The notes under the pieces: generated by a model
What the model saw: the letters and a program-made list of their open reading frames with translations, nothing else
Database searches by the model: none
What the model was told of the DNA's origin: nothing
Shown here: piece by piece, positions 42,978-58,046 of the stretch
How the letters are laid out: each line of letters begins with the position of its first letter
How positions within the stretch are numbered: position 1 is the first letter of the stretch
Source: Acidimicrobiia bacterium
GTDB lineage: Bacteria; Actinomycetota; Acidimicrobiia; Spongiisociales; ZC4RG35
Direction: 5' to 3'
DNA length: 64,000 bases
Assembly: GCA_965220995.1 (NCBI GenBank)
Contig: OZ244856.1
Coordinates: forward strand, 97,407-161,406
Position numbers and translations under genes: made by a program

Positions 42978-44087
42978 TCAGGAACGGACCGCGGCGATGA
43001 TCTCTTCCACAGACAGGCCGTCCAATCCCAGTCGGTCCAGGGTGCGGCCCTGGGCGATCTCAGACTCCAACCCGGCCGCAGACGCCAGATTCAGCAGGGC
43101 CTCCGCCACCGGGGTCTTCACGCCCGCCACCTTGGCCAACTCCACCATGGGAAGTAACCCATAGCCGAAATCCTCGGTGTAATAGCGGTGACCGAGAGAA
43201 TCGGGAGCCATGATCCGGGCGTTGGCTGAGCCGCCCGAGATGGCGCCCTGCAGGTCTGATTGATCGGCATCGGCCTCCACCGTGCCGATCGCCAACATCT
43301 CCTCCATCAGGGATCCCAGACGGTATCCGAAGGCTTGCGCCACGGCCAGGCGTTCCCGGTCTACGCGTTCCATAACCGAAGCCACCCCGGAAGTCATCCC
43401 CTCCACGTAGAAACGAAAATCGCCGCCCGTGGCCTCCACCCAGGCGGCGGCCATTATCGCTCCGGGGGGATGAAGGACCATATTCACCTCCGCCAATCCC
43501 ACCGCCAGCACATCGGGCTGACGGATAGCACCCGGATAGAGATGGCCGACCAGATCCAATGTCGCTTCCCCACCGGGAAGGCACCCGACCAACATCCGGG
43601 CGGCCGCTCCGGTGATGTTCACCAACCACTGCGGGTCCACCTCCCCCGCCCGATTGTTTGCACCCCCGGCTGTGGCGCGGACCGTATAGGGAAGAGTGGA
43701 ACATTCGGCAATGGCGGGCAGGCACTCGACACCGCTATCCTGCATCACCTTCGCCACCTCCAAGGCGCCTCCCAGGTGACCGGGCGCCAACACCACGGGG
43801 TCCTCGCATCCCACCCGCGCCAAATGTCGGGCCACCTCCCGGTGAGCAGTGGAGGGCAGGCAAACCAGCACTCCGGCTGCTCCCCTCACCGCCTCTGCCA
43901 CGCTGTTGGTGCAGTTGACCGGCATCACCCCATCACCGAACACTCCTTGGTACGCCAGGTGAAACCCGGCAACAGGCTCTTTCGGCAACGTGCGCCGCCA
44001 CCAAACTACGTCGAACCCTCGCAGCGTCAGGTCGACTGTCGCCGCCATGCCCCCCGCTCCCCCTCCCATCACCACAATCCGGGTCAC
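42978..44087 (-). CDS. NAD(P)-dependent opine (octopine/nopaline-type) dehydrogenase-family protein
   Basis: N-terminal Rossmann 'IVVMGGGAGG' and a C-terminal 'YYTEDFGYGLLP' region typical of the opine dehydrogenase family. Confidence 0.75.
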   Translation of the reverse strand: MTRIVVMGGGAGGMAATVDLTLRGFDVVWWRRTLPKEPVAGFHLAYQGVFGDGVMPVNCTNSVAEAVRGAAGVLVCLPSTAHREVARHLARVGCEDPVVLAPGHLGGALEVAKVMQDSGVECLPAIAECSTLPYTVRATAGGANNRAGEVDPQWLVNITGAAARMLVGCLPGGEATLDLVGHLYPGAIRQPDVLAVGLAEVNMVLHPPGAIMAAAWVEATGGDFRFYVEGMTSGVASVMERVDRERLAVAQAFGYRLGSLMEEMLAIGTVEADADQSDLQGAISGGSANARIMAPDSLGHRYYTEDFGYGLLPMVELAKVAGVKTPVAEALLNLASAAGLESEIAQGRTLDRLGLDGLSVEEIIAAVRS

Positions 44088-44097: not shown

Positions 44098-45288
44098 TCA
44101 CTGACCGGCGCCCAGGTCCAAGTGTGTGCCGGCGGCCACCGAGTACTCTTCCACCTTGGCCGAATCGACCTTCACTCCCAGGCCGGGACCCCGGGGAACC
44201 ATCACCCGCCCCTCCTCGAAACCGAACGCCTCGGTGATCAGGTCGTCGGTGTAATAGATACCGGCAATCTCGGGCCGGGCTGAACCCTGGGGGCCGGAAA
44301 CCGGGCAAACGCTGGGAAGGATGGCGTTTTCGGCGGCCGCGCCCAGCGCCAGATTGGCGGCGTTGCCGATGCCGGTTTCGATCGATCCGCCGATGTCGCA
44401 CATCATGCCCAGGCGACGGGCGGTCTCGGCCTGCTGGCGGGCCCGGAACAAACCGCCGGGTTTGGTGACATAGCACGAAAAGTATTCGGCGGCGCCCAAT
44501 TCAACCAGTTCCCAGATGTCCTCGGTGGTCCAAGCCGACTCATCGGCCATGACCGGGGTCTCCACCCGCTGGGCCACCGCCGCCAAACCCTCCGCCCCGG
44601 CCACCGGCTGTTCGCACAGCATGATGTCGTACTCCTCCTGGGCGCGAGTGACCCGAACGGCCTCCGCCACATGGGAGTAACCCTCGTTTCCATCCACTCT
44701 GATCTTGATCCAGGGGCCCACCAACTCACGCAGTCGTCGCACCAATTCCACATCCCGGGTGGGATCAAGACCCGTTTTGCATTTGATGGTCAAAGCCCCT
44801 TCGGACACCGCCTGCTCCGCCTCGGCCAGACATTTTTCCACCGGCATGATCCCCAGAGAATGCGCCAACTCGATACCCCGACGGTGAGCACCACCCAGCA
44901 GCGTGGACACCCCCACCCCCATGGCATGGCCGGCCGCGTCGTAGCAGGCCATATCGATCATGGCCTTGGCGTAGGGATGACCCTTCACTGCTTTGTCCAT
45001 CCGCGAGTGGACCACCGCGATCTCCCGGGGATCACAGCCGGCCACCGCCGGTAGCAGATAATCGGAAGCCACGATCCGGACCGTCTCCGGTGATTCCCCG
45101 TAATACCTCATGGCCGACCCACCCCAGGTGATTCCCGCCGGGGCCTCTCCCCATCCCACTACTCCCCGGTCGGTGCCCAGGCGGAGAATGGCGTGGTGGC
45201 CGATGGGGGCGGTCATCTTGGAAGCCCAGGTGTGGTGGCGCCGGGTGGGAAGGGCAACTATGTAGATGGTGGCCTCGGTGATTCTCAT
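44098..45288 (-). CDS. Enolase-superfamily enzyme (mandelate racemase / muconate lactonizing enzyme / dipeptide epimerase-like)
   Basis: Capping domain plus a TIM barrel with 'KIRVDGNEGYS', 'MLCEQPV' and metal-ligand Asp/Glu positions. Confidence 0.8.
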   Translation of the reverse strand: MRITEATIYIVALPTRRHHTWASKMTAPIGHHAILRLGTDRGVVGWGEAPAGITWGGSAMRYYGESPETVRIVASDYLLPAVAGCDPREIAVVHSRMDKAVKGHPYAKAMIDMACYDAAGHAMGVGVSTLLGGAHRRGIELAHSLGIMPVEKCLAEAEQAVSEGALTIKCKTGLDPTRDVELVRRLRELVGPWIKIRVDGNEGYSHVAEAVRVTRAQEEYDIMLCEQPVAGAEGLAAVAQRVETPVMADESAWTTEDIWELVELGAAEYFSCYVTKPGGLFRARQQAETARRLGMMCDIGGSIETGIGNAANLALGAAAENAILPSVCPVSGPQGSARPEIAGIYYTDDLITEAFGFEEGRVMVPRGPGLGVKVDSAKVEEYSVAAGTHLDLGAGQ

Positions 45289-46280
45289 GTCGGTTCCGTT
45301 TCATAAAGTTCGATCTCGTTGCCGTCGGGGTCGGCCACATAGACGGTGAGTCCATAGGGGCCGGGCCCCAGGGGACGCACGATCCGGTAACCCGCCTCCT
45401 CCACCCGCCTCTCCCATTTGGCCACCCCCGCCACCTCGAATGCGAAATGATCCACCTGACCGCCCCGGCCGGTTCCCCCTTCGGTGAGACCCAGACCCTC
45501 CTCGGTACCGATGAAGCGACGCCCGTCGCGAAAAGGGGCGCGGTTCTTCACGGTGAATCCCAACAGGTCGACATAGAAGCGCTCGGCAGCCTCCAGATCG
45601 GTGGTCTCCAACAGCACATGCCGTATCCCTTTCACCACCGGACGGCGACTGCTCTCCAACCAGGCCTTCACCTGCTCCGAGGTGGCGAGATGGGCCAAGT
45701 AATGCGACCACACCTCCAAAGCCGAGGGTTCCCACCGGGGGCGCACCCCCGCGATGCAGTCGGTGACGGCCACCACATCGTAATCCCGCAGATAGGCCTC
45801 ACGAATGGTGGTCTCCACACAGGCATTCAAGGTCACCCCGGTGATGAAAAGGGTCCGTGCCCCCAACATGCGCAACAGGGCCTCGAGGCGGGTTTCGTAG
45901 AAGGCTCCGAAACGGTGTTTTTGCACCACCATGGTCGGGTCATCAGCCAGGTCGGCCAGCTCCTCCACGATCTCCGCATCCCAGCTGCCCGCCAGGGCCG
46001 CCACCCGGGAACGGCGCTCGGTGTGAGAGGGGAGTCGCTTGCGTTGCCTACCCCGGTCGGGTTGCAGATGCGCCTGAACCGTCCAGATCACCGGAAGGCT
46101 CGCCTCCCCGAAGGTACGCACCAGCCCAGCGACCGGCTCGTAGACATGGTGGGTAGGTCTGACATCCACCCCTGATTCGCCCAGCGTCCCTTGGGGATGA
46201 CAGAAGGCATTCTGCAGGTCGATAACCAGCAAGGCTGACCCCTGGGGATCAAGCCTCAGCAGATCGGTCTCCCCGCTCAT
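45285..46280 (-). CDS. Fusion protein: N-terminal isochorismatase-like hydrolase and C-terminal VOC (glyoxalase/bleomycin-resistance/dioxygenase) domain
   Basis: N-terminal 'ALLVIDLQNAF' with 'LFITGVTLNACVETT' (Asp/Cys catalytic context). C-terminal 'RHVLLETTDLEAAERFYVDLLGF...DHFAFEV...YVADPDGNEIELYE' VOC signatures. Overlaps both neighbouring genes by 4 nt. Confidence 0.7.
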   Translation of the reverse strand: MSGETDLLRLDPQGSALLVIDLQNAFCHPQGTLGESGVDVRPTHHVYEPVAGLVRTFGEASLPVIWTVQAHLQPDRGRQRKRLPSHTERRSRVAALAGSWDAEIVEELADLADDPTMVVQKHRFGAFYETRLEALLRMLGARTLFITGVTLNACVETTIREAYLRDYDVVAVTDCIAGVRPRWEPSALEVWSHYLAHLATSEQVKAWLESSRRPVVKGIRHVLLETTDLEAAERFYVDLLGFTVKNRAPFRDGRRFIGTEEGLGLTEGGTGRGGQVDHFAFEVAGVAKWERRVEEAGYRIVRPLGPGPYGLTVYVADPDGNEIELYETEPT

Positions 46281-46471
46281 ACGTCGGTTCGGTCGGGACC
46301 GAGCACCCCCGCCAGACCCCAGCTGTCCCGGGGGACATCGTGGATGATGACGTGCAAGGCATCAGGCCGGGCATCGGCATGTTCCACCATCGCCTCGGTG
46401 ATGGACTTCACCAACCGGCGCTTTTGCTCGACGGTTCTTCCTTCCCACATTTCCACGGTCACAACCGGCAC
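46277..46471 (-). CDS. 4-oxalocrotonate tautomerase-family protein
   Basis: 64 aa, with an N-terminal catalytic Pro1 context 'MPVVTVEMWEGRTVEQKRRLVKSITEAM'. Confidence 0.7.
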   Translation of the reverse strand: MPVVTVEMWEGRTVEQKRRLVKSITEAMVEHADARPDALHVIIHDVPRDSWGLAGVLGPDRTDV

Positions 46472-46556: not shown

Positions 46557-46841
46557 TCACCGAAAGTCGAAGCGAGGAGCTTCTGTGTACGGTTCCGAGA
46601 CGGTCGCCTCGATTAAATCATTCCACTGCCTTCTGGTGGTTTCCTTCTCATAGGTAAAGAATCGGGAACACCCTTGGAGATCGGCGGAGCCGAGATGGAT
46701 AGCATCGGCCGATCTCACTCCGCGTAATCCCTCCCGCCGGGCCCGTCGCACGGCATCCGACAGTTTTCGGATCGTGACCTCGCCGCCGAGGCGGAACGTC
46801 ACATGGTCTTCAGACATTCGCAGGGATATTAACGGAGCCAC
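46557..46841 (-). pseudogene. Possible truncated PIN-domain (VapC-like) remnant
   Basis: 'RSADAIHLGSADLQGCSRFFTYEKE' resembles the C-terminal half of VapC, but the N-terminal catalytic Asp region and any antitoxin are missing. Confidence 0.25.
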
Positions 46842-47099
46842 TTTGCATGCTCCTTCGCCTCAGTCTCAACCACCCAGGACTTCCCCACAACAGGACCCAA
46901 CCAACCGCAAGACTTATGCGCCCTTCATCGTAGAGGCGGTGAATCACCCGGCAGGCAGGGGAGGCTGCGCGGACCGTCCGGGCCGATTCAAAGCTCGGGC
47001 CAACGCACCCGACCCGGACCGGGTAACACCGACACCAAATAGTGGATCCCGAAACAAGGAGCAATGTCCCCCGACCAACTCCGATAGCCTTTCCACATC

Positions 47100-48893
47100 A
47101 TGCAACCCACCACCGCCGCGGGTTCCCACCCGTCCTTTGTTTGGGAGCTTGCGATCCTGGGCGACCGCCTGGCCGGCTTGTCCTTGGCCGCGGAGGCGGC
47201 GGCCAGCGGGTTGGAACGGGTGTTGGTGCTGTCCCCCTCCGATCCCGGGATGTACCCCAGCCGTTTCTCGGCGCCGGGAATCACCGTTCGCTACCAAACG
47301 GTGTCCCGACGGATCCGCCCGGTGGCCGGCCCCTTTGTGGTGGTGGAAACCTCCACCGGACCGGTGACGGCAAGAAAGGTGGTGATAGGCCCGTCTCTTC
47401 CTTCACCGGACCACCGCTCCCCGCTTATCACGGTGGATCCGTCGGTTTCCCACCTGGTCTACACCCACCCCACCCAATTGCAGGAGCCGCCGGGAGACGT
47501 GGTGGTGATGGGAGAGGGCGACGAACCGGTGGAGTGGACCCTGGACCTCTTGACCAAGGGGGCAAAGGTGGTCTTGTGCATCAGGCATACCGAGTTCGGC
47601 AAGATGTCGTTTCTGGCCCGACGAACCGTGCGCCGGCTGGAGGCACAGCGCCAGATCACCGTCTTCTGGCGAGCCCGACCCACCCGGGTGTACGACGTGG
47701 CGGGTTATCCGATGGTGGCTTTCGACAACCGCCAGACCCCCGACCTGCAGTTCGATCAGGTGCTGCTCTCGGGGCCCAATCCCCCGGTGGCCCGGTTGCT
47801 GGAAAGCTCCGGCATAGAAATCGAGCAAGCGTCGCCTGCGGTTCATCTGCTGACCCACGGCGACGAACCTGGCCCAGACCCCGAGGGAGTGGTCACCCTA
47901 CCCGCCGACCGGGCGTGGGAAAAAATGAGGTCCCGCTACTTTCCTTCCCTGCCGACCTCGCCTCACCATGCCACGCCGGTTACCGATGGCCGGCGCCTGT
48001 CCCATCTGGAAGACCGCTTCTACAACGCCACCATCACCTGGTTCCGACGAGTCAATCCCGACCTGTGGATCGTCAGGGTGCGGCCCGACCAGCGCGACGC
48101 TCCGCTGGTGCCCGGACAATACGCCACTCTGGGACTGGGCTATTGGGAGCCCCGGGTGGATGGGGCGGTCGATCGGATGGCCAGAGACGAGCGACTGGTT
48201 CGCCGATCATATTCCATTTCTTCCCGCATATTCAACTCCCAGGGATATCTGACCGATCCGGTCTATGAGGAGCACCTTGAGTTCTACATCGTGTTGGTGC
48301 CACCCAGTCCCGACCGTCTGCCGGGACTCACCCCCCGACTTGCCCTCAAGCACGAGGGGGACCGGATCTATCTGGGTCCCAGAATGGCCGGGCGCTACAC
48401 ACTGTCGGGGGTGACCGACCCCTTTTCCGACGTGTTGTTTCTGGCCACCGGCACCGGAGAGGCCCCTCACAACGCCATGGTGGTGGAACTGTTCCGCAGG
48501 GGGCATCAGGGTCGGGTGATCTCGGTGGTGTCGGTCCGCTACGCCGCTGATCTGGGATATGCGGCCCGACACCGAGCTTTGGAAGAGCGCTTCCCCAACT
48601 ATCGATACATGCCGCTGGTGACTCGGGAAGACGCCGCCGGGACGCTGCGGATGCGCATCCAGCAACTGATCGCCGAGGACCGTCTCACCAGGGAAACCGG
48701 ATTGGAGTTGGACCCTGCCCGACTGAAGGTTTTCATGTGCGGGAACCCGGCCATGATCGGAGTGCCGGAGTGGCTCGATGAACAGCCCACCTTCGGTGAC
48801 ACGGTCGGTGTGGCCCAACTTCTGGCCGAGCGAGGGTTTACCCTCCCTCGGCATGGCGTCAAATCAAATGTTCACTATGAAGAGTATTGGTAG
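47100..48893 (+). CDS. Two-domain flavoprotein: N-terminal FAD/NAD(P)-binding Rossmann-like module fused to a ferredoxin-NADP+ reductase (FNR)-type oxidoreductase domain
   Basis: C-terminal FNR motifs 'RRSYSISS' (FAD), 'GTGEAP' (NAD(P)H) and 'PGQYATLGL'. N-terminal 'VWELAILGDRLAG' dinucleotide-binding-like motif. Its stop overlaps the next gene's start. Confidence 0.65.
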   Translation: MQPTTAAGSHPSFVWELAILGDRLAGLSLAAEAAASGLERVLVLSPSDPGMYPSRFSAPGITVRYQTVSRRIRPVAGPFVVVETSTGPVTARKVVIGPSLPSPDHRSPLITVDPSVSHLVYTHPTQLQEPPGDVVVMGEGDEPVEWTLDLLTKGAKVVLCIRHTEFGKMSFLARRTVRRLEAQRQITVFWRARPTRVYDVAGYPMVAFDNRQTPDLQFDQVLLSGPNPPVARLLESSGIEIEQASPAVHLLTHGDEPGPDPEGVVTLPADRAWEKMRSRYFPSLPTSPHHATPVTDGRRLSHLEDRFYNATITWFRRVNPDLWIVRVRPDQRDAPLVPGQYATLGLGYWEPRVDGAVDRMARDERLVRRSYSISSRIFNSQGYLTDPVYEEHLEFYIVLVPPSPDRLPGLTPRLALKHEGDRIYLGPRMAGRYTLSGVTDPFSDVLFLATGTGEAPHNAMVVELFRRGHQGRVISVVSVRYAADLGYAARHRALEERFPNYRYMPLVTREDAAGTLRMRIQQLIAEDRLTRETGLELDPARLKVFMCGNPAMIGVPEWLDEQPTFGDTVGVAQLLAERGFTLPRHGVKSNVHYEEYW

Positions 48894-49804
48894 AGCCTGA
48901 CGTGTCGGTTCCCTGGACCCAAAGGGTGATCGCGGTGGTGGGAGGGGACCGCCGGGAGCAGGAGATCGCCCGTCGGGCCGCCGCCACCGGCGCCACGGTG
49001 CGCGCCCACGGGTTCCCCTGGCCCGGCCACGGTATTCCCAAGGTTGTGAACTGTTCCACTCCCATCGCAGCGTTGGCAGGCGCCCACTTCGGGCTGCTTC
49101 CCATCCCCGGCATTGCCCCGAATGGCGCTCTCTTCGCACCCTCGGCTCCGCAACCGATTTTCGTCGGGGTCACGGCGTTGGAAGCCATGGCCGAGGGCGC
49201 CCACCTAATCCTGGGCGCTTCCGACCGGCGCCTGCGGGAGGCGGCCGAGCAGGTGGGCATTGGCATCTCCGAATACGAGGATGACCGCGAGTTGATGTTG
49301 CGCAGGGGTCCGGCGATCGTGGAGGGGGCGGTGGGAAAGATTATCGAACTAACCGAGATCACCATCCACAACGCCAGGGTGGGAGTGGTCGGGCAGGGAA
49401 CCATCGGCTCTCTGCTCACTCGCACCCTGGTATTGCTGGGAGCCCGCGTCCTGGTGGCGGCCCGCAGTCCCGTCCAGCGGGCGGCATCGGAGACGATCGG
49501 CGCATCCGCGGTTCCTCTTCACCGGTTTTCCGACCATGTCCATCGTCTGGATATGCTGGTTTCCACCGTTCCTGCGCCGGTGGTGGGGGAAGACCTGCTG
49601 CGGCGCCTTCCGAAGGGAAGTCTGGTGATGGACCTGGCGGCCCCGCCGGGAGGAGTTGACCTGAGCCGGGCGGCGGCGCTGGGCCACGTCACCTGCTGGG
49701 CCAGAGGTTTGGGCGACCGGGCGCCGGTCACGGTTGGGGCATCCCAATGGGACGGCATACGCAAGAGAATCGAAGAGATCGAAGAGGCAAGGAATGCAGG
49801 CTGA
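48887..49804 (+). CDS. DpaA-like protein (dipicolinate synthase subunit A / SpoVFA family; NAD(P)-binding)
   Basis: Collinear similarity to B. subtilis SpoVFA: 'RVIAVVGGDRREQEIARR' vs 'KKIAVIGGDARQLEIIRK', 'VGVVGQGTIGSLLTRTLVLLGARVLVAARS' vs 'VAVLGLGRTGMTIARTFAALGANVKVGARS', 'LVMDLAAPPGGVDL' vs 'LILDLASRPGGTDF'. Confidence 0.75.
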   Translation: MVEPDVSVPWTQRVIAVVGGDRREQEIARRAAATGATVRAHGFPWPGHGIPKVVNCSTPIAALAGAHFGLLPIPGIAPNGALFAPSAPQPIFVGVTALEAMAEGAHLILGASDRRLREAAEQVGIGISEYEDDRELMLRRGPAIVEGAVGKIIELTEITIHNARVGVVGQGTIGSLLTRTLVLLGARVLVAARSPVQRAASETIGASAVPLHRFSDHVHRLDMLVSTVPAPVVGEDLLRRLPKGSLVMDLAAPPGGVDLSRAAALGHVTCWARGLGDRAPVTVGASQWDGIRKRIEEIEEARNAG

Positions 49805-51140
49805 TCTGGTGATACGCAACGCCCGGGTGGTAACCCACACGGGAGAATTTCGGGGAGGAGTCTCCGTGGTGGGAGAACAGATTTCGGTGGTCGGCCAGGA
49901 CACCGATCTGCCCCCCGCCCGGCGAGTAATTGACGCCGACGGTCTGGTGCTGATGCCGGGAGTGATCGACCCCCATTGTCACCTGGGCGTCAACTATCCC
50001 TACGACGAGGATATGGACACCGAGACGGCCGCGGCAGCCCGCGGGGGGATCACCACGGTTCTTCTGTACATACGCAATCTCGAGCCTTCCTACCTGCCCT
50101 TCTATCGGAACCGTCGCCGACGGGGCGAAGCGGTGGCCCGGATCGACTTTGGGTTTCACTTCGGGATCCAACGGGAGGAACACATCGCGGAGATCCCCTT
50201 GATCGCGCAGGAAACCGGGGTGCAGTCATTCAAATGCTATTTCGGCTACGAGCAGCAGAACCCCATCGGCATAGTCCCGGCGGACGACGGTTGGGTTTAC
50301 ACCGCAATGACCAAAATACGCGAGCTTCCCAAAGGGGTTATCTCGATCCACTGCGAGAACACCGAGATCGCCCGATGGATCAAAAAGTCGGTGCAGGCCA
50401 CCGGTCGCCAGGATCTGGGCGCCTACACCGAGTCGCGGCCGGCTCTCTGCGAAGAGGAGACCATCGCCCGGATGATATTTCTGGCCGAACGCACCGGGTG
50501 CCCGTTGTACGTGGTGCACACCAGTGTGGCCGCCGGGCCCCCCATGGCCGCCCGGGCCCGCGCCCGGGGGGTGGATGTCACCATCGAAACCTGCCCTCAC
50601 TATCTGGTGCGCACCGCCTACGACCCCGACCTGGACATGCGGGCCAAGATCTCCCCTCCTCTGCGGGACCGAGAGGAACAGGAGGGCTTATGGGAAGGGA
50701 TCTTCGCCGGGCAGGTGGGAGCGATCGGCTCGGACCATGTTCCGTTCTTTCCCAAGAAGGGAGAAGACCTGTGGGAAGAGAAGCCGGGCGTGGTTTCCTT
50801 TCCGTGGGAGTTGGCGCTGCTCTTGGAGCACGGAGTGCACCGTCGGGGCCTTTCGCTCCCCGATCTGGTCAGGATGAACTCCTACGGACCGGCGCGGCGC
50901 TTCGGTTTCTATCCTCGCAAGGGCGCGATCGCCCCCGGGGCCGACGCCGATCTGGTGATGGTGGACCTCGATCAGGTGGATACGGTCCGGCACACCGGCA
51001 ACGGCACCTGCATCTACGAGGGCATGAAGCTTCGGGGATGGCCGGTGATGACGGTCAGCCGGGGACGGGTGGTCTTCGAAGGCGGGGAGGTCGATCCCGA
51101 TTCCCTGGGCCACGGCCGGTGCGTAACCCGACCCGACTGA
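49794..51140 (+). CDS. D-hydantoinase / dihydropyrimidinase
   Basis: 'LMPGVIDPHCHLG' HxH motif, a carbamylated-Lys region 'QSFKCYFGY', and His/Asp ligands. The start (MQADLVIRNARVV) overlaps the DpaA-like stop. Confidence 0.85.
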   Translation: MQADLVIRNARVVTHTGEFRGGVSVVGEQISVVGQDTDLPPARRVIDADGLVLMPGVIDPHCHLGVNYPYDEDMDTETAAAARGGITTVLLYIRNLEPSYLPFYRNRRRRGEAVARIDFGFHFGIQREEHIAEIPLIAQETGVQSFKCYFGYEQQNPIGIVPADDGWVYTAMTKIRELPKGVISIHCENTEIARWIKKSVQATGRQDLGAYTESRPALCEEETIARMIFLAERTGCPLYVVHTSVAAGPPMAARARARGVDVTIETCPHYLVRTAYDPDLDMRAKISPPLRDREEQEGLWEGIFAGQVGAIGSDHVPFFPKKGEDLWEEKPGVVSFPWELALLLEHGVHRRGLSLPDLVRMNSYGPARRFGFYPRKGAIAPGADADLVMVDLDQVDTVRHTGNGTCIYEGMKLRGWPVMTVSRGRVVFEGGEVDPDSLGHGRCVTRPD

Positions 51141-51213
51141 TTGGGAAGATGCCGGCGAACCGTTCCCGCAGTCATAGCATTGCCGAGATGAGACGCGAGC
51201 CGGAGAGCAGTCG

Positions 51214-51810
51214 ATGAGAATCCTGGTGGTGTGGGCTCACCCCCTGGCCGACAGCTACTCGGCGGCCCTCAAGGACCGGGCCGTGGAGGCCCTGGCGAGG
51301 GCCGGGCACGACATCGACCTCCTGGACCTCTACGCCGAGGAGTTCGACCCGGTCCTGTCCGCCCAAGAACGCCGGGACTACCACGAAATCGGCCCGAACC
51401 TGGCCAATGTCTCGGCCTATGTGGAAAGGCTCCGAGCCGCCGAGGGGTTGTTGTTGATCTTCCCCACCTGGAGCTTCGGTTACCCGGCCATCCTCACCGG
51501 GTGGCTGCAGCGGGTGTGGATCCCTGGAGTGGCCTTCGGACTGCGGGAAGAAGGCGGCCCCATCATCCGGGGAATTCTCAACATCCGGAGAGTGGCGGCA
51601 GTGACCACCACCGGCTCACCATGGTGGTATGTCCTGGCGGTGGGCAACCCGGCCAAACGGGTCCTCAAACGCGGTCACCGGGCCATGTTCGCCCGGGGGT
51701 GTCGAGTCAAGTGGCTGGACCTGAACAACATGAACAAGGACTCGCCGAACAAGCGAAAAAAGTTCCTGGGCCGAGTGGAGCGCACCCTGCCATCCTTCTT
51801 TTCCGATTGA
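51214..51810 (+). CDS. Flavodoxin-like fold NAD(P)H-dependent oxidoreductase (NQO1/quinone reductase-like)
   Basis: 'MRILVVWAHPLADSYSAAL' start and overall pattern typical of the NAD(P)H dehydrogenase (quinone)/FMN reductase family. Confidence 0.7.
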   Translation: MRILVVWAHPLADSYSAALKDRAVEALARAGHDIDLLDLYAEEFDPVLSAQERRDYHEIGPNLANVSAYVERLRAAEGLLLIFPTWSFGYPAILTGWLQRVWIPGVAFGLREEGGPIIRGILNIRRVAAVTTTGSPWWYVLAVGNPAKRVLKRGHRAMFARGCRVKWLDLNNMNKDSPNKRKKFLGRVERTLPSFFSD

Positions 51811-51819
51811 CTCCCACCA

Positions 51820-52019: not shown

Positions 52020-53195
52020 ATGGACCCCAGCCAGAATCCCTACAGTCCCGGAGCAGGGGCCCAACCTCCTGCCCTGGTTGGGCGAGACCGGGAACTGGAA
52101 CAGTTCGACATCGCAGTCGCGCGACTCGGCAGGGGGCTCTACGATCGCAGCTTCCTGGTAAGCGGGCTCCGCGGTGTGGGCAAGACCGTTCTTCTCTCCG
52201 AGTACTGCAGCATCGCCCATCAGCACAAATGGGCATACCAGCAAATTGAGGCTGCCAGGAACCTCGATCTGCCACGCGTCATTGCGGATCGGATACGTCT
52301 GGCCTTGCTGCAGTTATCCCCAGGCCGTCGTGTCGCTGCCCGTGGTCGCAGGGTGCTGCAAGTATTGAAATCTTTCAAAGTGCGGTGGAACCTGCCGGAA
52401 GGGGGCGAACTGGAAGTGGGTGTCGATCCCATTCCCGGCCGAGCCGACACGGGAATTCTCCAAGAAGATCTCACCGACCTCTTTATGGAGGTGGGCGAGT
52501 ACGCCCGAGAGCGGAAAGTCGGGGTTCTCATCACTATTGATGAAGCCCAATACCTGGACAAGAGCCAGCTTGTGCCGTTGCTCATGGGGCTTCACATGAT
52601 CGGCCAGAGGAATCTCCCCTTCATGGTGGTGTGCGCAGGGCTGCCATCCCTTCCCGGCTTGGTAGGTGAAGCCCGATCGTACGCCGAACGATTGTTTACC
52701 TTTGCAACCATCAACAGTCTTCAACCGGAGGAGTCCGTCACTGCACTAACCGCCCCGGCGGCCCGACACGACATCCAATGGGATGATGACGCCTTGGCAA
52801 GAATCGTTGAAGAGACGTCCGGTTATCCCTATTTCCTCCAGGAGTTCGGGAAACAGGCCTGGAACTTTGCGACCGATACTCACCGAATCACCCTGGCTGA
52901 TGTAGAGAGCACCGTACCGATGGCGATCCGAGAGCTTGACCTGGGTTTCTTCAATGTGCGGTTCCACCGCACCACTGGCGCAGAGAGAGCCTATCTGGCC
53001 ACCATGGCCGCCCTTGGACCCGGCCCCCACCCATCAGGGCAAGTGGCATCCAAAATGGGCAGAACGACTTCCCAGGTCAGCACTCTCCGCAACACCTTGT
53101 TGGCCAAGGGCCTTTGCTACGCCCCTCGCTACGGCGAAATCGCCTTCACCGTGCCCATGTTTGATCAGTTCCTCCTCCGCCGTCTGTCGTCATGA
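52020..53195 (+). CDS. AAA+ ATPase (Arch_ATPase/AAA_16-like, ORC/Cdc6-type P-loop) with C-terminal wHTH-like region
   Basis: 'LVGRDRELEQ...LVSGLRGVGKTVLL' Walker A and 'VLITIDEAQYL' Walker B. Function unknown. Confidence 0.65.
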   Translation: MDPSQNPYSPGAGAQPPALVGRDRELEQFDIAVARLGRGLYDRSFLVSGLRGVGKTVLLSEYCSIAHQHKWAYQQIEAARNLDLPRVIADRIRLALLQLSPGRRVAARGRRVLQVLKSFKVRWNLPEGGELEVGVDPIPGRADTGILQEDLTDLFMEVGEYARERKVGVLITIDEAQYLDKSQLVPLLMGLHMIGQRNLPFMVVCAGLPSLPGLVGEARSYAERLFTFATINSLQPEESVTALTAPAARHDIQWDDDALARIVEETSGYPYFLQEFGKQAWNFATDTHRITLADVESTVPMAIRELDLGFFNVRFHRTTGAERAYLATMAALGPGPHPSGQVASKMGRTTSQVSTLRNTLLAKGLCYAPRYGEIAFTVPMFDQFLLRRLSS

Positions 53196-53244: not shown

Positions 53245-54361
53245 TCAACCCACCGTGATCAGTTGGCGGTTGTCGTTCACATCCGACAGCAGCTGCGCCC
53301 CCTCGGCGGTCACTGCCACCATGTCCTTGAGTTGCAACCCGAAGCCGTGGCCGGTGTTGTAGATCAGGGGTTCCACGCCGAACACCATGCCCTCCTGCAG
53401 TACCTGGTCGTGGCGGGGGCTGATGTAGGGATGCTCATGCAACGACAGACCGATTCCATGACCAACGAACGAAAAGAGCGGCAGGCCGAGCGGGCCGCAC
53501 AGGGCCTCAAACCGATCCCACACCATCCGGCTTGACACTCCCGGCCCGATGGTTTCGAGCAGCACATCCCGGCACTCCACCAGCTTGGACCATATCTCCA
53601 CCGCGGACGGGGACGGGGAACCCACCACCGCCGTGCGACACACCCCGGCGTGGTAGCCCTCCGCCACCGCGAAGATCTCCACCCGGCACACATCGCCCTC
53701 CTGCAGCACCCGGCCGGTGGGACCCACATTGGCCAGTTGGCTGCGTGGCCCGGTGGCCACGATCATCAGCCGGAAGTCCTCGGCGCCTCCCCGGTAGATG
53801 CCGTCGGTGAGAGCCGCGGCTATCTCCATCTCGGTGTCTCCCGCCTTCACCGATCGGAGCGCCTCGCCGATGGATGAGTCGGAGATACGGGACAGACGGG
53901 CCAGGAGATCCAATTCCTCGGGGGTCTTGACCTGCCGCTGCCTTCCCAGCCAGGAGTCGGCGGCCACCCAGTCCACCCCCGGGGCAGCGTTTTGCAGTCG
54001 CGCGAAATCGGCGGCCGGCAGGTATCCCAACTCCACTCCCAGCCGCCCCCGCCCCAGGCCCAGGCGATTCAGGAGGCCCGCCAGACATACCATCGGGTCG
54101 TCGTCGAATTCGTCCCACACGGCCACCTGGGCGGCGCCGGTTCGTTGGCGCACCATGGCCTCTTCCACCCCGATGCACATCACCGCCGGTTCGCCGTCCC
54201 GGGGCAGCACCATCGCGGCATGCCTCCATCTCATCAACGGCTGGGAAGGGACCACGAACCCGGCCGGATAGGCGAAGTTTTCCGGAGAGCAGACCACCAA
54301 CCCGTCCCAGTCCTCCTGCTCCAGGGCGGCATGGAGACGAGTGATAACTTCAGTTCTCATA
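53245..54361 (-). CDS. M24-family metallohydrolase (creatinase / Xaa-Pro aminopeptidase-like), second copy
   Basis: Creatinase N-domain plus pita-bread domain with 'HGIGLSLHEHP' metal-ligand context. Start set at MRTEVIT (GGGGGA RBS). Confidence 0.8.
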
Positions 54362-54465
54362 TCAGGATTCCCCCAACTGTCCGCGCAAAGGGTAACCACC
54401 GGGAAGGTGCCATGCCCCACCCCGGTATCGTTGGGCGGAGCAAGTCAAAGGAGCCGAACCAAGCA

Positions 54466-55353
54466 ATGGACCAGGTACCCATCCCGGTGCGCGGACCGGC
54501 GGAAAAATTCCAGACCCTGTTCGACGCCGACCACCCCGATACCGGCGAGGGCGTGGCCCTCCACCCTGATTTCGCCGCCATCTACGGCGGACCGCTTCGG
54601 CTTCGGCCGCCCACCGACGGGCTGCCCCTCTTGGCAATGAACTTTGTAGCCGCCCACGACGGCCGAGTCGCTTTCAACCACCCCGACCATCGGGGGGGAG
54701 GTCCCATCTCGGGTTTCGATGACAACGACGTGTGGCTGATGGGCCTGCTCAGAGCCCGGGCCGATGCGGTGGTGGTGGGCGAGGGGACCCTTCGGGCCGA
54801 ACCCCGCCATATCAACACCCCCGACGACATCTACCCCAAGGACGCCGAGGCATTCGCGTCTCTCCGCAGCCATGAGAAGCGGTCGGAACTGCCCATCTTC
54901 TCCTATATCACCTTCGCCGGGAATCTCCCACCCCAATCCCGGGTCTTCACCTTGGAGAATGCTCACATAGTGGTCGCCACCACCGCCATCGGCGCCCGAC
55001 AAATCCGGGAGACCGTTCGCCCCGCCGGAAGGCTCGACATCCTGGAATTCGGAGACGACGGCGTGGACCTGGAGCGCTATGCGCGGATCATGGCCGCCGA
55101 CTACGGGGTGGACTTCCTGCTGTGCGAGGGTGGGGCCACCCTGTACGGCGCCCTGCTCCGGGCGGGGATCGTGAACGAACCCTTCATCACCCGGTCGCCG
55201 CTGGTGGTGGGAGAAAACCCCGACAACCCCCGTCCCAGCCTGGTGGAGGGTGTCGGTTGGCTGCCCGACGACGCGCCGCGCATGCAGATCCTCTCGGTTC
55301 GCAAGGCCGGTGAATACCTTTACATGCGCTACCGCGCCACCTATCCCGCCTAG
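54466..55353 (+). CDS. RibD C-terminal-domain / dihydrofolate-reductase-like NADPH-dependent reductase
   Basis: 'LLAMNFVAAHDGRVAF' and 'VDFLLCEGGATLYGALL' are typical of the bacterial bifunctional deaminase-reductase C-terminal (RibD_C) family. Confidence 0.65.
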   Translation: MDQVPIPVRGPAEKFQTLFDADHPDTGEGVALHPDFAAIYGGPLRLRPPTDGLPLLAMNFVAAHDGRVAFNHPDHRGGGPISGFDDNDVWLMGLLRARADAVVVGEGTLRAEPRHINTPDDIYPKDAEAFASLRSHEKRSELPIFSYITFAGNLPPQSRVFTLENAHIVVATTAIGARQIRETVRPAGRLDILEFGDDGVDLERYARIMAADYGVDFLLCEGGATLYGALLRAGIVNEPFITRSPLVVGENPDNPRPSLVEGVGWLPDDAPRMQILSVRKAGEYLYMRYRATYPA

Positions 55354-55368: not shown

Positions 55369-56832
55369 TTGGAGACTGTGACCCCTCTCACCTCCGCAAC
55401 CCTCATCGAACACCTGGAGTTCGCCATTACCTGCAACCGGGACAACCAGGTGATCAGAGACGGGGCGATCCTGATCGAAAACGATCGCATCAAGGATCTG
55501 GGAACCACCGAGCAGGTGTATCAACGTCTCCGGTCGGAAAACACCAATCATCCGCCCAAGCGCCGGAGTGGTCGACGCCTGGGAATCACTCCCGGGCTGG
55601 TGGATTCGCACGTACATCTGTCCGAAACCCTGTCGCGGGCGGTGTTTCCCGATGTGATCGACACCCGTACCTGGGTATTTCACTGGGCCAAGCCCTTTTA
55701 CGCTCACGTGAGCACCGCCGACGAAGCAATCGGGTCTCTGCTCGGAACCGCCGAGATGCTCCGGGGAGGAACCACCTGCTTTCTGGACATGGGCGCCCAG
55801 AACGACCCGGCCCCGGTGGCCGCCGCGGTGGAGCAAACCGGGATCAGGGGCATCACCGGCCGTCACGCGGCCGACCGAAAACCCAAAGAGATCCCCCGGG
55901 GATGGTCCCCCCAGATGGTGGACCACCATTTCTTCCCCAACGCCGAGGTGGCATTGCAGGCCTTGGAGGACACGGTGCGAACCTGGAACGGAGCGGCCGG
56001 GGGGCGCTTGGGGGTGTGGGTGAACATCGAAGGGAAGGAACCCTGCAGCCTGGACCTGCACGTCGGCGCCCGGGAGTTGGCGGAGCGCCTGGGAGTGGGT
56101 GCCACCTATCATCTGGCCACTTCTCTACCCGAGGCGCACATCTCGCAGCGGCGGCATGGTATGTGGCCGATCACCCGGGTGGCCCAAGCCGGCGGCCTGG
56201 GTGACAACCTGGTGATAGCGCATGCGGTGGCCGTGACGCCCGATGAGGTGGAAGACTTGGCCGAACACCGCACCAAGGTGGCCTTTTGTCCCTCCACCTC
56301 CCTCAAACTCGCCAAAGGTGCCACAGCCATCGGGCAGTATCCGGAGATGATGGAGGCCGGGGTGACCGTGGGGTTGGGGACCGATGGGGTCTCGGCAGCC
56401 GGAAATCTCAACCTTCACCGTCAGATTCACCTGGCGGCCGGAATGTTCAAGGACGCCCGCATGGATGCTTCCCTGGTGGGCGCCCAGCGGGCATTGCGCA
56501 TGGCGACCATCGATGGCGCAACCGCGCTGGGGATGGAGTCGGAGATCGGGTCGCTGCAGATCGGTAAGAAGGCCGACTTCGTGCTGTGGAATCTGGATCA
56601 TCCCGACTGGGTTCCCTACGGAGACCCCCTTTCGGCGTTGGTATGGTCGGCGTCCACCGGATCGGTGCTGGAGACCTGGGTGGACGGGCGTCCCTGCTAC
56701 CGGGACGGCCGGGTGCTCGGAATCGACGAGGAGGCGCTCTTCGAGGAAGCACGGCAGAGAGCCGCCCACATCCGCGCCCGCGCCGGGCTCACCAGCCCCG
56801 ACGTTCCCCTGACCACCGCCCTCTACCAGTGA
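55369..56832 (+). CDS. Amidohydrolase of the TRZ/ATZ / guanine-deaminase / aminohydrolase subgroup
   Basis: 'PGLVDSHVHLSE' HxH, a later HxxE-type region, and 'GTDG' plus a C-terminal Asp, typical of nucleobase/s-triazine deaminases. Confidence 0.8.
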   Translation: METVTPLTSATLIEHLEFAITCNRDNQVIRDGAILIENDRIKDLGTTEQVYQRLRSENTNHPPKRRSGRRLGITPGLVDSHVHLSETLSRAVFPDVIDTRTWVFHWAKPFYAHVSTADEAIGSLLGTAEMLRGGTTCFLDMGAQNDPAPVAAAVEQTGIRGITGRHAADRKPKEIPRGWSPQMVDHHFFPNAEVALQALEDTVRTWNGAAGGRLGVWVNIEGKEPCSLDLHVGARELAERLGVGATYHLATSLPEAHISQRRHGMWPITRVAQAGGLGDNLVIAHAVAVTPDEVEDLAEHRTKVAFCPSTSLKLAKGATAIGQYPEMMEAGVTVGLGTDGVSAAGNLNLHRQIHLAAGMFKDARMDASLVGAQRALRMATIDGATALGMESEIGSLQIGKKADFVLWNLDHPDWVPYGDPLSALVWSASTGSVLETWVDGRPCYRDGRVLGIDEEALFEEARQRAAHIRARAGLTSPDVPLTTALYQ

Positions 56833-58046
56833 ACCTGCCCGTCAGCCGCCCCGGCGATCTGGTTTGCGGCGATCGTCCCCAGGGGATCGGCCCGGTGAGG
56901 GTTCCCGGATACGGACCGCCCCAGGTCATTTTTCTGCGAGACGGCGCAATCGGGGAAATCAGTCCCGCCCCCGCCGGCGCGGAGAACTCCAGTGAAGCGC
57001 CCACCCATTTGGCGCTGCCCGCCTTCTCCGAACCGCACCTGCATCCCGACCGCGCCTATGTGGGATCGCCGCGTGCTCCCCGCTCCCTGGAAGACGCTAT
57101 CGAGTTGGGTGTCCGCCCCGAAGGCTACGTGGTGGAGACCGCCGCCCGGCGCGCCCGGCGTCTGTTCACCACCCTCCTGAAGAACGGGGCCACCCGGGCG
57201 AGAGGCCATGTCGGGCATCTTCCCGGCTCCATCGCCCCACCCCGATGGCCGGTCATGAACCAGGTCCGCGCAGAACTGGCCGATCGCATCGAGATTGAAC
57301 TGGTGGCTTTCGCCGTGGAGGGCACCCTGGCCGATCCCGATGAAACCGACCGCCTCCGCCAGGACCTCGCCCAAGGCAGATACCAGTTGGTGGGGGGATC
57401 ACCCAACCACGACAGCCGACCCGAACGGTCGGTGCGGGCGCTTATGAGACTCGGGGCTGAAACGGGAGTAGAGGTGGACGTTCACATTGATGAGACGCTC
57501 GACCCCGCCCGCCTTCTGATGGACTTCGCCCTCGACGAGGTGGAGCGCCACAACCTGGCGGGCAAGGTCTCCTTCAGCCACAGTTGCCTGTTGAGCGCCC
57601 TCCCCGAGCCACAGACCCGCGCTCTGGCCCGGCGCATGGCCGGACTGGGGATCACCGTCAACTGCCAGCCCCGGACCAACTTGATCCTGCACGAATACCG
57701 GGTTCACTCGCCCCGTCGGGCCCTGGCCCCCATCAACCTGCTCCACCAAGAGGGGGTTCACGTGAGGCTGGGGGTCGACAACGTGGACGACACTTTTTGT
57801 CCTTTCCCCACCGCCGACCCGCTGGAGATGGGGTACCTGGCCCGAATGGCCGGACACCTCTATGATGATTCCCTCCTCCTTTCCGCTCTCAGCGACGGCC
57901 GCTCCACCCTCGGGGTCGGGGAGCGGGCCGACATGGTGCTGGTGGAGACGGACACCATCAACAAGGCTCTTGCTCTGCGGCCCTCGCGGGTTACCATGAG
58001 GGCAGGCATAGTGGTAGCCCGTGGCAACAACCGAGAACTCGGATAG
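56829..58046 (+). CDS. Cytosine-deaminase-like amidohydrolase (CodA / creatinine-deaminase family)
   Basis: 'LPAFSEPHLHPD' HxH and 'VDVHIDE' match the CodA family. GTG start overlaps the upstream stop (GTGA). Confidence 0.75.
   Translation: MNLPVSRPGDLVCGDRPQGIGPVRVPGYGPPQVIFLRDGAIGEISPAPAGAENSSEAPTHLALPAFSEPHLHPDRAYVGSPRAPRSLEDAIELGVRPEGYVVETAARRARRLFTTLLKNGATRARGHVGHLPGSIAPPRWPVMNQVRAELADRIEIELVAFAVEGTLADPDETDRLRQDLAQGRYQLVGGSPNHDSRPERSVRALMRLGAETGVEVDVHIDETLDPARLLMDFALDEVERHNLAGKVSFSHSCLLSALPEPQTRALARRMAGLGITVNCQPRTNLILHEYRVHSPRRALAPINLLHQEGVHVRLGVDNVDDTFCPFPTADPLEMGYLARMAGHLYDDSLLLSALSDGRSTLGVGERADMVLVETDTINKALALRPSRVTMRAGIVVARGNNRELG

Follow-up and report, generated by a model that had tools for sequence, protein, structure and literature searches.

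What does a homolog of DpaA, subunit A of the sporulation enzyme dipicolinate synthase, do in a bacterium from a non-sporulating lineage? The question is raised by a stretch of 64,000 nucleotides from an Acidimicrobiia bacterium (assembly GCA_965220995.1, contig OZ244856.1, positions 97,407 to 161,406; in the following the window), in which three neighbouring genes at 47100-51140 encode an FNR-like fusion flavoprotein (gene A), a DpaA-like protein (gene B) and a cyclic amidohydrolase (gene C). To our knowledge DpaA has hitherto been known only as one half of the spore dipicolinate synthase; its chemistry is the alpha,beta-dehydrogenation of a cyclic imino dicarboxylate, for which it requires a flavoprotein partner, DpaB. 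An earlier reading of the window, made from the sequence only, had proposed that the FNR-like protein takes the part of DpaB and that the products of genes A and B form a two-component heterocycle dehydrogenase serving the hydantoinase in place of a PydA/PreAT-type enzyme. That the three genes are real was borne out by Pfam, PDB and motif comparisons. The conserved core of the locus, however, is not FNR plus DpaA; it is made up of the DpaA-like protein, a VOC/glyoxalase domain and a 4-oxalocrotonate tautomerase (4-OT). Familiar enzyme superfamilies are here assembled in an undescribed, widely conserved cluster, and the DpaA scaffold has in it a second, non-sporulation role.

Gene B (48902..49804, + strand, 300 amino acids) encodes a DpaA-like NAD(P)-binding dehydrogenase with the Pfam domain DpaA_N (PF16924, 63.3 bits, cutoff 29.2). 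As the sequence-only reading had stated, the protein is collinear with sporulation DpaA, both with that of Bacillus subtilis (PDB 2rir, residues 13-299, 26-29% identity, E 9e-28) and with that of B. halodurans. Its AlphaFold2 (AF2) model, with a predicted local distance difference test (pLDDT) score of 87, has 2rir and 3d4o as top Foldseek matches (E 5e-21, template-modelling (TM) score 0.64-0.77), followed by domain I of transhydrogenase and by D-2-hydroxyacid dehydrogenases. With dipicolinate synthase subunit DpaA (SpoVFA; DpaB is SpoVFB) gene B thus shares the two-domain fold, DpaA_N and a collinearity over about 290 residues. Its NADP-type site is intact, GQGTIG164 being followed by AARS186, just as in Bacillus DpaA the glycine motif is followed by GARS.

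Gene B is nevertheless not a dipicolinate synthase gene, because DpaB is lacking, the scores stay below the curated cutoffs (DpsA NF006162, 182.0 versus 261 bits; spore_dpaA TIGR02853, 165.2 versus 319.65 bits) and the hosts of the DpaA-like genes (Acidimicrobiia, Gaiellales, Actinomadura, Hyphomicrobiales, Burkholderiales) do not sporulate; on this point the sequence-only reading was right. A tblastn search with DpaB of B. velezensis (L091, 3391-3981) found no homolog in the 64-kb window or in about 90 loci, the yield being two chance matches in the loci (E 0.53 and 5.5) and zero in the window, and PF02441 was absent from the Pfam lists of the neighbouring genes. The B. velezensis reference shows the locus dpaA-dpaB-asd-dapG; whereas Bacillus dpaA lies by asd and dapG, gene B and its relatives lie in hydrolase-rich catabolic operons. 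A protein search with the gene B product gave more than 1600 relatives, of which the closest are unnamed or called dipicolinate synthase subunit DpsA. For these non-sporulating organisms the pipeline name is almost certainly wrong, since DpaB is absent and the scores lie under the equivalog cutoffs. The DpaA-like protein is best read as an enzyme of NAD(P)-linked imine/enamine redox chemistry. In the literature searched we found no account of DpaA homologs outside sporulation, all mentions of a dipicolinate synthase subunit A concerning sporulating Firmicutes, and nothing on DpaA/DpsA homologs with hydantoinase, opine dehydrogenase or isochorismatase.

The family is large. In a profile search of 1.8 billion cluster representatives (50% identity) 690 families were found at E<=1e-30, among which some 25 lie close to the DpaA-like query, and a scan with one genome per species found DpaA-like relatives encoded in 213 genomes. 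This DpaA sister family, whose hosts are non-sporulating Actinomycetota, Proteobacteria and others (at least 213 genomes at the species level), stands at the centre of a conserved, hydrolase-rich operon. Loci of the best 80 of the 213 genome hits were compared via tblastn with every window protein and via homology-supported maps of open reading frames (ORFs), the ORFs in the loci being called heuristically (frame GC plus homology-supported selection) and cross-checked by tblastn. The window and 15 retrieved loci, including metagenome-assembled genomes (MAGs) named OM1 and RHO1 bins, make up a marine Acidimicrobiia clade, which is fully syntenic with the window. Flanks of about 10 kb were available for 14 loci of this clade and for 35 of other lineages, in total 49 full-flank loci; the lineages outside the clade include Gaiellales, Actinomadura, Amycolatopsis, Leucobacter, Pseudolabrys, Xanthobacteraceae, Rhodoplanes and Burkholderiales. 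Direct adjacencies were counted in all non-clade loci whose flank on the side in question was long enough.

A VOC domain, free or fused, lies near the DpaA-like gene in 49 of 49 full-flank loci, and a 4-OT gene is found in 48 of them. Usually the core is joined by an opine-dehydrogenase-like (ODH-like) gene, which is coupled upstream, by an enolase-superfamily (MR/MLE) enzyme and by an M24 protein deficient in metal ligands; each of the three is present in 14/14 full-flank loci of the marine clade, and in the 35 of other lineages they number 22, 22 and 21, respectively. In the ancestral state the cluster had, besides these, a hydrolytic module of two deaminase-type amidohydrolases, the cyclic amidohydrolase and a cysteine amidase of the isochorismatase family fused to the VOC domain (Iso-VOC). 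The cyclic amidohydrolase, Iso-VOC and the TRZ/ATZ-type deaminase each occur in all 14 marine loci and in 16 of the 35 others.

In the window, Iso-VOC is encoded at 45285..46280 (- strand; Isochorismatase 128 bits, Glyoxalase 61 bits). The best PDB and NCBIfam matches of its isochorismatase domain are RutB (81 bits) and biuret hydrolase, the D-K-C triad motifs are intact (IDLQN20, QKHR120, NACV152), and so are the metal motifs of the VOC domain (HVLL221, DHFAF277, EIELY322). The adjoining 4-OT gene (46277..46471, - strand) encodes a protein of 64 amino acids with a proline after the initiator (Pfam Tautomerase 74.9 bits; NCBIfam taut subfamily 59.4 bits, above the cutoff of 56.9). A functional link between DpaA-like protein and VOC domain is supported by P0364 (L093, 2477-3763), a natural DpaA-like plus VOC/glyoxalase fusion of 428 amino acids in a single ORF on a 3.9-kb metagenome contig. 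Two other apparent fusions were discarded as artefacts: P0120 (Octopine_DH plus DpaA) was taken to stem from a frameshift, with an arginine-rich out-of-frame linker and a protein start in the middle of the ODH, and P0376 is an artefact as well.

The ODH-like NAD(P) oxidoreductase (42978..44087, - strand; Pfam Octopine_DH, PF02317, 134.8 bits, cutoff 30) is a full-length member of its family: residues 8-358 align with CENDH (PDB 1bg6, E 1.7e-40), and GGGAGG stands at residue 8. From CENDH and octopine dehydrogenase it differs in that its gene is, in other lineages, translationally coupled to those of a DpaA-like protein and a cyclic amidohydrolase, a context that was not found in the literature searched. 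Its gene lies directly upstream of the DpaA-like gene (overlapping or within about 20 nucleotides) in 37 of 63 non-clade loci, and about 4.2 kb away on the opposite strand in 14/14 loci of the marine clade. The enolase-superfamily gene (44098..45288, - strand; MR_MLE_C 154 bits, MR_MLE_N 55 bits) matches the muconate cycloisomerase subfamily with 210 bits, short of the cutoff of 335, and PDB 3i4k with E 1.5e-45.

How does the FNR-like protein fit in? Gene A (47100..48893, + strand) encodes 597 amino acids. The fused Rossmann/FNR-like architecture that the sequence-only reading had described was recovered: the C-terminal half is an FNR of the bacterial Fpr type (Pfam NAD_binding_1, 39 bits) with RSYS at 369 (the RxYS motif), GTGEAP at 451, CGNP at 547 and a C-terminal EEYW, so that the FAD and NADP motifs are intact. 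It matches Fpr (PDB 1fdr/8dos) with E 6e-18 and a Foldseek TM of 0.76 on the target, the AF2 model being moderate (pLDDT 68, 9-sequence alignment) and used for the domain-level fold only; against NCBIfam Fpr NF008178 it scores 74.3 bits over residues 376-553, below the equivalog cutoff of 390. With Fpr-type FNR the C-terminal 250 amino acids share RxYS, GTGxAP, CGNP, the terminal YW and the Fpr fold, but Fpr is a single module of about 250 amino acids, whereas gene A has in addition an N-terminal domain of about 290 amino acids with degenerate glycine motifs (the first reads GDRLAG). This is a divergent two-Rossmann domain of the pyridine-nucleotide-disulfide-oxidoreductase/AIF-like type (Pyr_redox_3, 23.5 bits, under the cutoff of 30), with weak matches to TrxR-type FNR and YpdA and, in the AF2 model, with fold matches to AIF- and CoA-persulfide-reductase-like proteins.

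That the FNR-like and DpaA-like proteins together form the heterocycle dehydrogenase has several things in its favour: the genes are tightly packed in the window, the FNR-like gene adjoins the DpaA-like gene upstream in 13 of the 14 full-flank marine loci, a true DpaA needs a flavoprotein partner, and the FNR module has its cofactor motifs. In 82 related loci taken together, however, the two genes are neighbours in the marine clade only. Outside it the FNR-like gene occurs in 0 of 35 full-flank loci and directly upstream of the DpaA-like gene in 0 of 63 loci, while the DpaA-like gene, often with the amidohydrolase, is kept. Even within the clade it can be missing: L014, which adjoins the window and L001 in the tree and is a complete chromosome of 2.94 Mb, has no FNR-like sequence, carries in its place an unrelated ORF of 256 amino acids on the other strand and retains every other cluster gene. 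In L006 a spacer of 168 nucleotides separates the FNR-like from the DpaA-like gene, and in L019 there is an apparent frameshift (a frame change) inside the FNR-like gene. The FNR is, moreover, unrelated to the fold family of DpaB, which was not detected.

Gene A belongs to a family of more than 1000 Acidimicrobiia-wide fusion proteins (homologs P0142-P0240) with an invariant HYEEYW C-terminus. Identity is at least 69% for the cluster-linked copies and then falls straight to about 47%; the more than 1000 relatives at that level are stand-alone genes beside DNA ligase, lipases or regulators. The ODH-like protein has a similar profile (at least 74%, then about 50%), and the gap in the FNR profile is therefore explained by how far the marine clade stands apart, not by a special paralog. 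On the simplest reading the FNR-like gene is an Acidimicrobiia-wide gene that in the marine clade came to stand before the operon. As a general model the two-component enzyme is largely refuted; that it operates here we consider very improbable. The FNR-like gene did not hold up as a DpaB-like partner, and the search for co-occurrence of DpaA_N proteins with FNR-like and hydantoinase genes in non-sporulating genomes gave a divided result, the amidohydrolase recurring across lineages and the FNR-like gene in one clade only.

The start-to-stop overlap that had been reported for all three genes divides in the same manner. For gene B the likely start is GTG 48902, which matches the homologs P0001 (99% identical) and P0002 (85%), the alternative being TTG 48887. 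From the GTG the A/B junction is a gap of 8 nucleotides and from the TTG an overlap of 7; since both homologs start at the GTG equivalent, the gap is most likely. Gene C (49794..51140, + strand, 448 amino acids), by contrast, overlaps with its start the stop of gene B by 11 nucleotides. The B/C adjacency and overlap are conserved across phyla (Actinomycetota, Proteobacteria), the A/B juxtaposition in one clade only. The overlapping pair DpaA-like > amidohydrolase is found in 14/14 marine-clade and 16/35 other full-flank loci, and in 30 of 61 non-clade loci the gene that directly follows the DpaA-like gene is that of the amidohydrolase. Such conservation of the overlap is far beyond chance and supports a functional link of the DpaA-like protein to the cyclic amidohydrolase.

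Gene C was called a D-hydantoinase, a name that is valid at the family level only. The protein, a member of the hydantoinase/allantoinase/dihydropyrimidinase superfamily, has the full set of binuclear-metal motifs (DPHCH59, SFKCY145, IHCEN185, VVHTS240, GSDH312) and matches L-hydantoinase (PDB 1gkr) with E 1.4e-59, but it stays below every curated equivalog cutoff: 287 versus 631 bits for allantoinase, 281.9 versus 393.25 for D-hydantoinase/dihydropyrimidinase (TIGR02033) and 273.5 versus 357.85 for AllB, the allantoinase families compared being TIGR03178 and PRK06189. These nearly equal scores suggest a separate subfamily, about equidistant from several named families.

A neighbour-joining tree of the DpaA-like proteins suggests how the cluster was shaped. 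The order ODH > DpaA-like > amidohydrolase is shared by every Actinomycetota locus and by the proteobacterial branches at the base, which suggests that the DpaA-like > amidohydrolase pair is ancestral; the loci without amidohydrolase form nested, derived proteobacterial clades, with the order DpaA-like > (4-OT >) VOC, the VOC being free of its isochorismatase partner, and with halves of a decarboxylase dependent on thiamine pyrophosphate (TPP) and putative TctC-type binding proteins. Loci of the marine clade branch from inside the Actinomycetota type; they are peculiar in that the ODH/MLE/Iso-VOC/4-OT block is transcribed divergently and that an FNR-like gene stands before the DpaA-like gene. 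The ancestral operon is ODH-like > DpaA-like > cyclic amidohydrolase > 4-OT > isochorismatase-VOC; with it go an ABC transporter, two amidohydrolases of the deaminase type, the ligand-deficient M24 protein and an enzyme of the enolase superfamily. The window contains all of these as well.

Aminobacter aminovorans (KCTC 2477; pAA01, AA2016_RS28095-28120) and Shinella sp. HZN7 (pShin-03, shn_RS28825-28850) have a six-gene operon (ODH > DpsA > HYD > hyp > 4-OT > Iso-VOC, HYD being the cyclic amidohydrolase) with overlaps of 1-4 nucleotides, accompanied by RidA, a GntR/FCD regulator, a CobW-type GTPase, cytosine-deaminase-like and TRZ/ATZ-type enzymes, MLE, M24 and an NMT1-type ABC transporter; into the Aminobacter cluster malate synthase G and a D-amino-acid dehydrogenase are inserted. 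The arrangement in Pseudarthrobacter sp. P1 is similar. As these three organisms are cultured and tractable, the pathway is directly testable. Neighbours of the cluster in three separate lineages include TPP-dependent 2-oxo-acid enzymes.

What could such a cluster do? Our preferred answer, held tentatively and with a little less than even confidence, is that it is a widespread catabolic cluster for a cyclic ureide/amidine-type compound in which the DpaA-like step comes after ring opening. The compound, a cyclic ureide or amidine that bears an amino substituent and resembles a pyrimidine, hydantoin or creatinine, would be imported and deaminated, its ring would be opened by the cyclic amidohydrolase, and the resulting carbamoyl or amide group would be removed by the isochorismatase domain. 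The amino or enamine acid would then enter the invariant core: 4-OT (with RidA in some hosts) would tautomerise the enamine/imine, the VOC domain would act by isomerisation or cleavage, and the DpaA-like and ODH-like proteins would carry out an NAD(P)-linked C=N/C=O redox reaction to a 2-oxo acid. The M24 variant may be a parallel amidino- or ring-hydrolase entry. The DpaA-like step is placed after ring opening because the core outlives the loss of the whole hydrolytic module. The catalytic motifs of the amidohydrolase, the isochorismatase domain, the VOC domain and the NAD(P) site of the DpaA-like protein are intact, in keeping with such a pathway. A redox step that feeds the amidohydrolase, as the sequence-only reading had it, is possible but not favoured, since derived proteobacterial clades keep the DpaA-like, VOC and 4-OT genes after losing the amidohydrolase.

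Several points weigh against this assignment. Substrate class and pathway order are read from gene content, the order of the steps solely from gene gain and loss, and the detailed roles of the MLE, VOC and M24 proteins are left unexplained. The 11-nucleotide overlap of genes B and C could instead point to a complex of the two proteins, or to two successive steps of which the redox reaction is the first. In the marine clade the FNR-like gene is kept in all but one of the full-flank loci (in 14/15 when the short contig L015 is included) and usually lies a few nucleotides from the DpaA-like start, so that a clade-specific functional role is possible. Finally, the sample consists of the best 80 of 213 genome hits, the ORF calls are heuristic and the neighbour-joining tree is without support values.

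If the redox reaction came first, the DpaA-like and ODH-like proteins would form an NAD(P)H-dependent ring reductase, a variant of the sequence-only proposal in which the ODH-like protein takes the place of the FNR-like one. After deamination, a C=C or C=N bond in the heterocycle would be saturated, and the amidohydrolase would then open the ring. The pair would be a counterpart, free of flavin and of Fe-S, to dihydropyrimidine dehydrogenase or 6-hydroxynicotinate reductase, the amidohydrolase would act like dihydropyrimidinase or enamidase, and the isochorismatase domain would serve as beta-ureidopropionase, RutB or NicF. The ancestral order ODH > DpaA-like > amidohydrolase with overlapping genes is consistent with this possibility, as is the fact that the dehydrogenation catalyzed by DpaA is the reverse of such a reduction. 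The neighbours have a pyrimidine flavour (cytosine-deaminase-like, TRZ/ATZ, RibD_C, RutB-like hydrolase), and genes that read as Mo-hydroxylase genes lie by some proteobacterial clusters. About half of the non-clade loci, however, keep the DpaA-like, VOC and 4-OT genes without an amidohydrolase, isochorismatase domain or deaminase within 10 kb, and the activity of the pair is a prediction only; we regard this alternative as a serious rival, if a rather doubtful one. About as doubtful is its wider form, in which the DpaA-like, ODH-like, VOC and 4-OT proteins together would constitute a new nicotinamide-dependent, flavin- and Fe-S-independent N-heterocycle system; in equal doubt is the further proposal that this system would reduce or dearomatise a pyrimidine-, hydantoin- or pyridine-carboxylate-type ring for opening by the new amidohydrolase subfamily. 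Were it true, soil and sponge-associated bacteria would possess an unknown route of N-heterocycle catabolism with a repurposed spore DpaA scaffold.

The comparison with known pyrimidine pathways goes in both directions. With the reductive pathway (PydA/PreAT-PydB-PydC) the cluster has in common that its gene content allows a redox enzyme, a cyclic amidohydrolase and a carbamoyl-removing hydrolase. PydB, the dihydropyrimidinase, and gene C belong to the same superfamily, but gene C stays under the dihydropyrimidinase cutoff (282 versus 393 bits). There is no DHOD-like/Fe-S dihydropyrimidine dehydrogenase in the Pfam matches of the scanned window genes or in the related loci, the third enzyme of the Pyd pathway is a CN-hydrolase or M20 protein whereas here it is an isochorismatase-family cysteine hydrolase fused to VOC, and, unlike in the Pyd pathway, the redox genes persist after loss of the amidohydrolase. 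To the Rut pathway the cluster is related through the isochorismatase domain, whose best structural relative is RutB (81 bits), and through RidA, which accompanies the Aminobacter/Shinella cluster and to whose type RutC belongs; this likeness together with the RidA companion points to enamine/imine handling after hydrolysis. The monooxygenase RutA and the flavin reductase RutF are lacking here, and ring opening would be hydrolytic.

The deaminases and the M24 protein bring in creatinine. The TRZ/ATZ-type deaminase-like amidohydrolase (55369..56832, + strand; Amidohydro_1 175 bits) scores 249 bits with 5'-deoxyadenosine deaminase and 196 bits with 8-oxoguanine deaminase, all under cutoff, and the cytosine-deaminase-like amidohydrolase (56829..58046, + strand) scores 139 bits with PRK05985 and 115 bits with PRK07572 (cytosine deaminase), both likewise under cutoff; homologs of the latter are annotated cytosine deaminase in Aminobacter and Shinella. 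The M24/creatinase-fold hydrolase (53245..54420, - strand; Peptidase_M24 131 bits, Creatinase_N 52 bits) has E-G-H-E-K in place of the metal ligands D-D-H-E-E when aligned to the prolidase 5cdl, a pattern found across phyla in 34 of 40 cluster-linked M24 proteins; clusters of the Gaiellales type have a canonical DDHEE enzyme instead. The loss of ligands argues for a creatinase-like, metal-independent hydrolase rather than a prolidase.

In a creatinine/creatine-like (guanidino/hydantoin) pathway, the cytosine-deaminase-like enzyme would yield the hydantoin, the cyclic amidohydrolase would replace the ATP-dependent N-methylhydantoinase, the isochorismatase domain would be an amidase of the N-carbamoylsarcosine type, the metal-free M24 protein an amidinohydrolase of the creatinase type, and the ODH-like and DpaA-like proteins would oxidise a sarcosine-like secondary amine to glyoxylate or another oxo acid plus amine. 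The pathway known from Arthrobacter, Pseudomonas and Corynebacterium (creatinine deaminase/N-methylhydantoinase/N-carbamoylsarcosine amidase/creatinase; PMC8864220) finds family-level counterparts of its deaminase, amidase and creatinase here, and indeed every enzyme family of the known route has one. Its hydantoinase, however, is the ATP-dependent HyuA/HyuB, whereas here the enzyme is a metal-dependent cyclic amidohydrolase; equivalog-level matches are lacking, and HyuA/HyuB domains were not among the Pfam matches of the window genes scanned. The M24 protein without two to three metal ligands resembles creatinase in this respect, this entry route is kept in the loci without the amidohydrolase, and the insertion of malate synthase G and D-amino-acid dehydrogenase in the Aminobacter cluster also speaks for it. 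The names of the MAGs with related loci suggest sponge sources, and sponge microbiomes have been reported to degrade creatine and creatinine (PMC6742649). Against creatinine it counts that the isochorismatase domain is nearer to RutB and biuret hydrolase than to the relatives of carbamoylsarcosine amidase, that the M24 protein is nearer to prolidases (113 bits) than to creatinases (60 bits), that genes for sarcosine oxidase and urease are absent from the cluster, and that creatine is small and achiral, which leaves the MLE, VOC, 4-OT and TPP enzymes unexplained; the known pathway has no role for the DpaA-like, ODH-like, 4-OT, VOC and MLE genes of the cluster. We consider a creatinine/creatine-like pathway unlikely. 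The cluster may help the marine, apparently sponge-associated Acidimicrobiia of the window lineage to harvest nitrogenous waste of the host.

The clusters without amidohydrolase have neighbours of their own. In four Burkholderiales loci (L040, L073, L078, L083) they adjoin, as read from the sequence, CoxL/CoxM/CoxG-like Mo-hydroxylase genes, an Amidohydro_2 (ACMSD/PicC-like) decarboxylase-like gene and an alpha/beta hydrolase gene. These neighbours hint at an N-heteroaromatic carboxylate as substrate in those hosts. Could it be dipicolinate itself? The DpaA-like protein would then run the synthase reaction backwards, from dipicolinate to dihydrodipicolinate, the ODH-like protein would reduce the cyclic imine, and 4-OT, VOC and MLE would handle aminomuconate- or oxopimelate-like products. 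The homology to DpaA is in line with this, 4-OT, RidA and MLE are typical for (amino)muconate-type dicarboxylates, putative TctC-type carboxylate-binding proteins are neighbours in Burkholderiales loci together with the Mo-hydroxylase and decarboxylase-like genes, and soils and sediments are rich in dipicolinate (PMC11472048). The deaminases, the cyclic amidohydrolase and the carbamoyl-type amidase of the ancestral cluster would find no explanation, however. The dip cluster for dipicolinic acid catabolism in A. faecalis JQ135 reportedly encodes the monooxygenase DipD and the GntR/FadR-type regulator DipR with GTATAC intergenic operators; GTATAC was not seen in the GntR/DpaA-like intergenic regions of the four loci, and in the window there is no GntR gene. 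Dipicolinate catabolism is, in our view, highly improbable. Homarine catabolism (homABCDER operon, PMC13236597) was also considered and ruled out, as the enzyme families differ.

Genes A to C are a rightward operon of a catabolic island of about 19 kb (42978-61936). A scan of 46300-52100 for sigma-70 promoters and intrinsic terminators gave nothing above shuffled controls. Downstream of gene C lies a gene for a Flavodoxin_2/NQO-type FMN NAD(P)H oxidoreductase (51214..51810, + strand; Flavodoxin_2 104 bits), which is present in 14/14 marine-clade and in 0/35 other full-flank loci. It is followed by a variable AAA_16 ATPase gene (52020..53195, + strand; 56.9 bits; 8/14 clade loci), possibly encoding a regulator. 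Beyond the M24 gene, a RibD_C/pyrimidine-reductase-family protein is encoded at 54466..55353 (+ strand; RibD_C 59 bits; NCBIfam pyrimidine reductase family 63 bits, under cutoff), again in 14/14 clade loci and clade-specific. The FNR-like fusion, Flavodoxin_2 and RibD_C proteins are additions found in marine Acidimicrobiia alone. Their role may be to provide reducing equivalents or to take them up, or they may be mere neighbours; a joint accessory function in the clade is possible, though nothing requires it, and an equivalent of the DpaB partner they are not.

The island ends with a transporter: an ABC ATPase (58021-58806; ABC_tran 100 bits), of which homologs occur in 30 loci, and a permease (58807-59616; BPD_transp_1 87 bits), with homologs in 23, both on the + strand, are followed by a gene for a putative substrate-binding lipoprotein (59669..61936, + strand) of 755 amino acids with signal peptide and lipobox. 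Pfam and NCBIfam searches with it gave zero matches; it is probably the binding protein of the transporter. Its ORF contains a perfect in-frame tandem duplication of 1033 bp (59847-60879 and 60897-61929, 350 codons apart). A second copy after the first is also found in L009, L011 and L012, and a single copy in the soil loci L004 and L031; a recent duplication, gene conversion or an assembly artefact could be the cause.

Outside the island, too, the window has many genes for C-N hydrolases and for nucleobase-type functions, and as a whole it looks like a nitrogen-scavenging region. A second set of C-N hydrolase genes (19027-24862, - strand, and 29550-32193, + strand) includes an AtzE-like amidase, RidA, a Zn-dependent alcohol dehydrogenase, an M24/creatinase-fold protein beside a second isochorismatase, an Xaa-Pro-dipeptidase-like amidohydrolase and a second allantoinase/hydantoinase-like cyclic amidohydrolase (30835-32193, 299 bits). 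At the left end, a Mo-hydroxylase with fused 2Fe-2S domain (66-2690, - strand) reaches 822.8 bits with the selenium-dependent xanthine dehydrogenase TIGR03311 (cutoff 830.45); a CN_hydrolase gene comes next, and a PnrA/Bmp-type nucleoside ABC transporter (4395-10128) adjoins. Between this nucleoside-transporter/CN-hydrolase block and an MscS-type channel gene lies an ISL3-family transposase gene (11311-12606, - strand; DDE_Tnp_ISL3, 195 bits). An ORF at 36120-37688 (+ strand) matches the C-terminal approximately 500 residues of the NACHT antiphage protein EruA (NF058535, 320 bits, cutoff 1000) and may be a truncated or divergent defence gene. Immediately to the left of the cluster two divergent genes (38316-40508, + strand, and 40586-42859, - strand) encode paralogous proteins of about 730-757 amino acids, in which the N-terminal approximately 30 residues are near-identical and the first 330 or so similar, an SLH domain being confirmed for the first of the two only.

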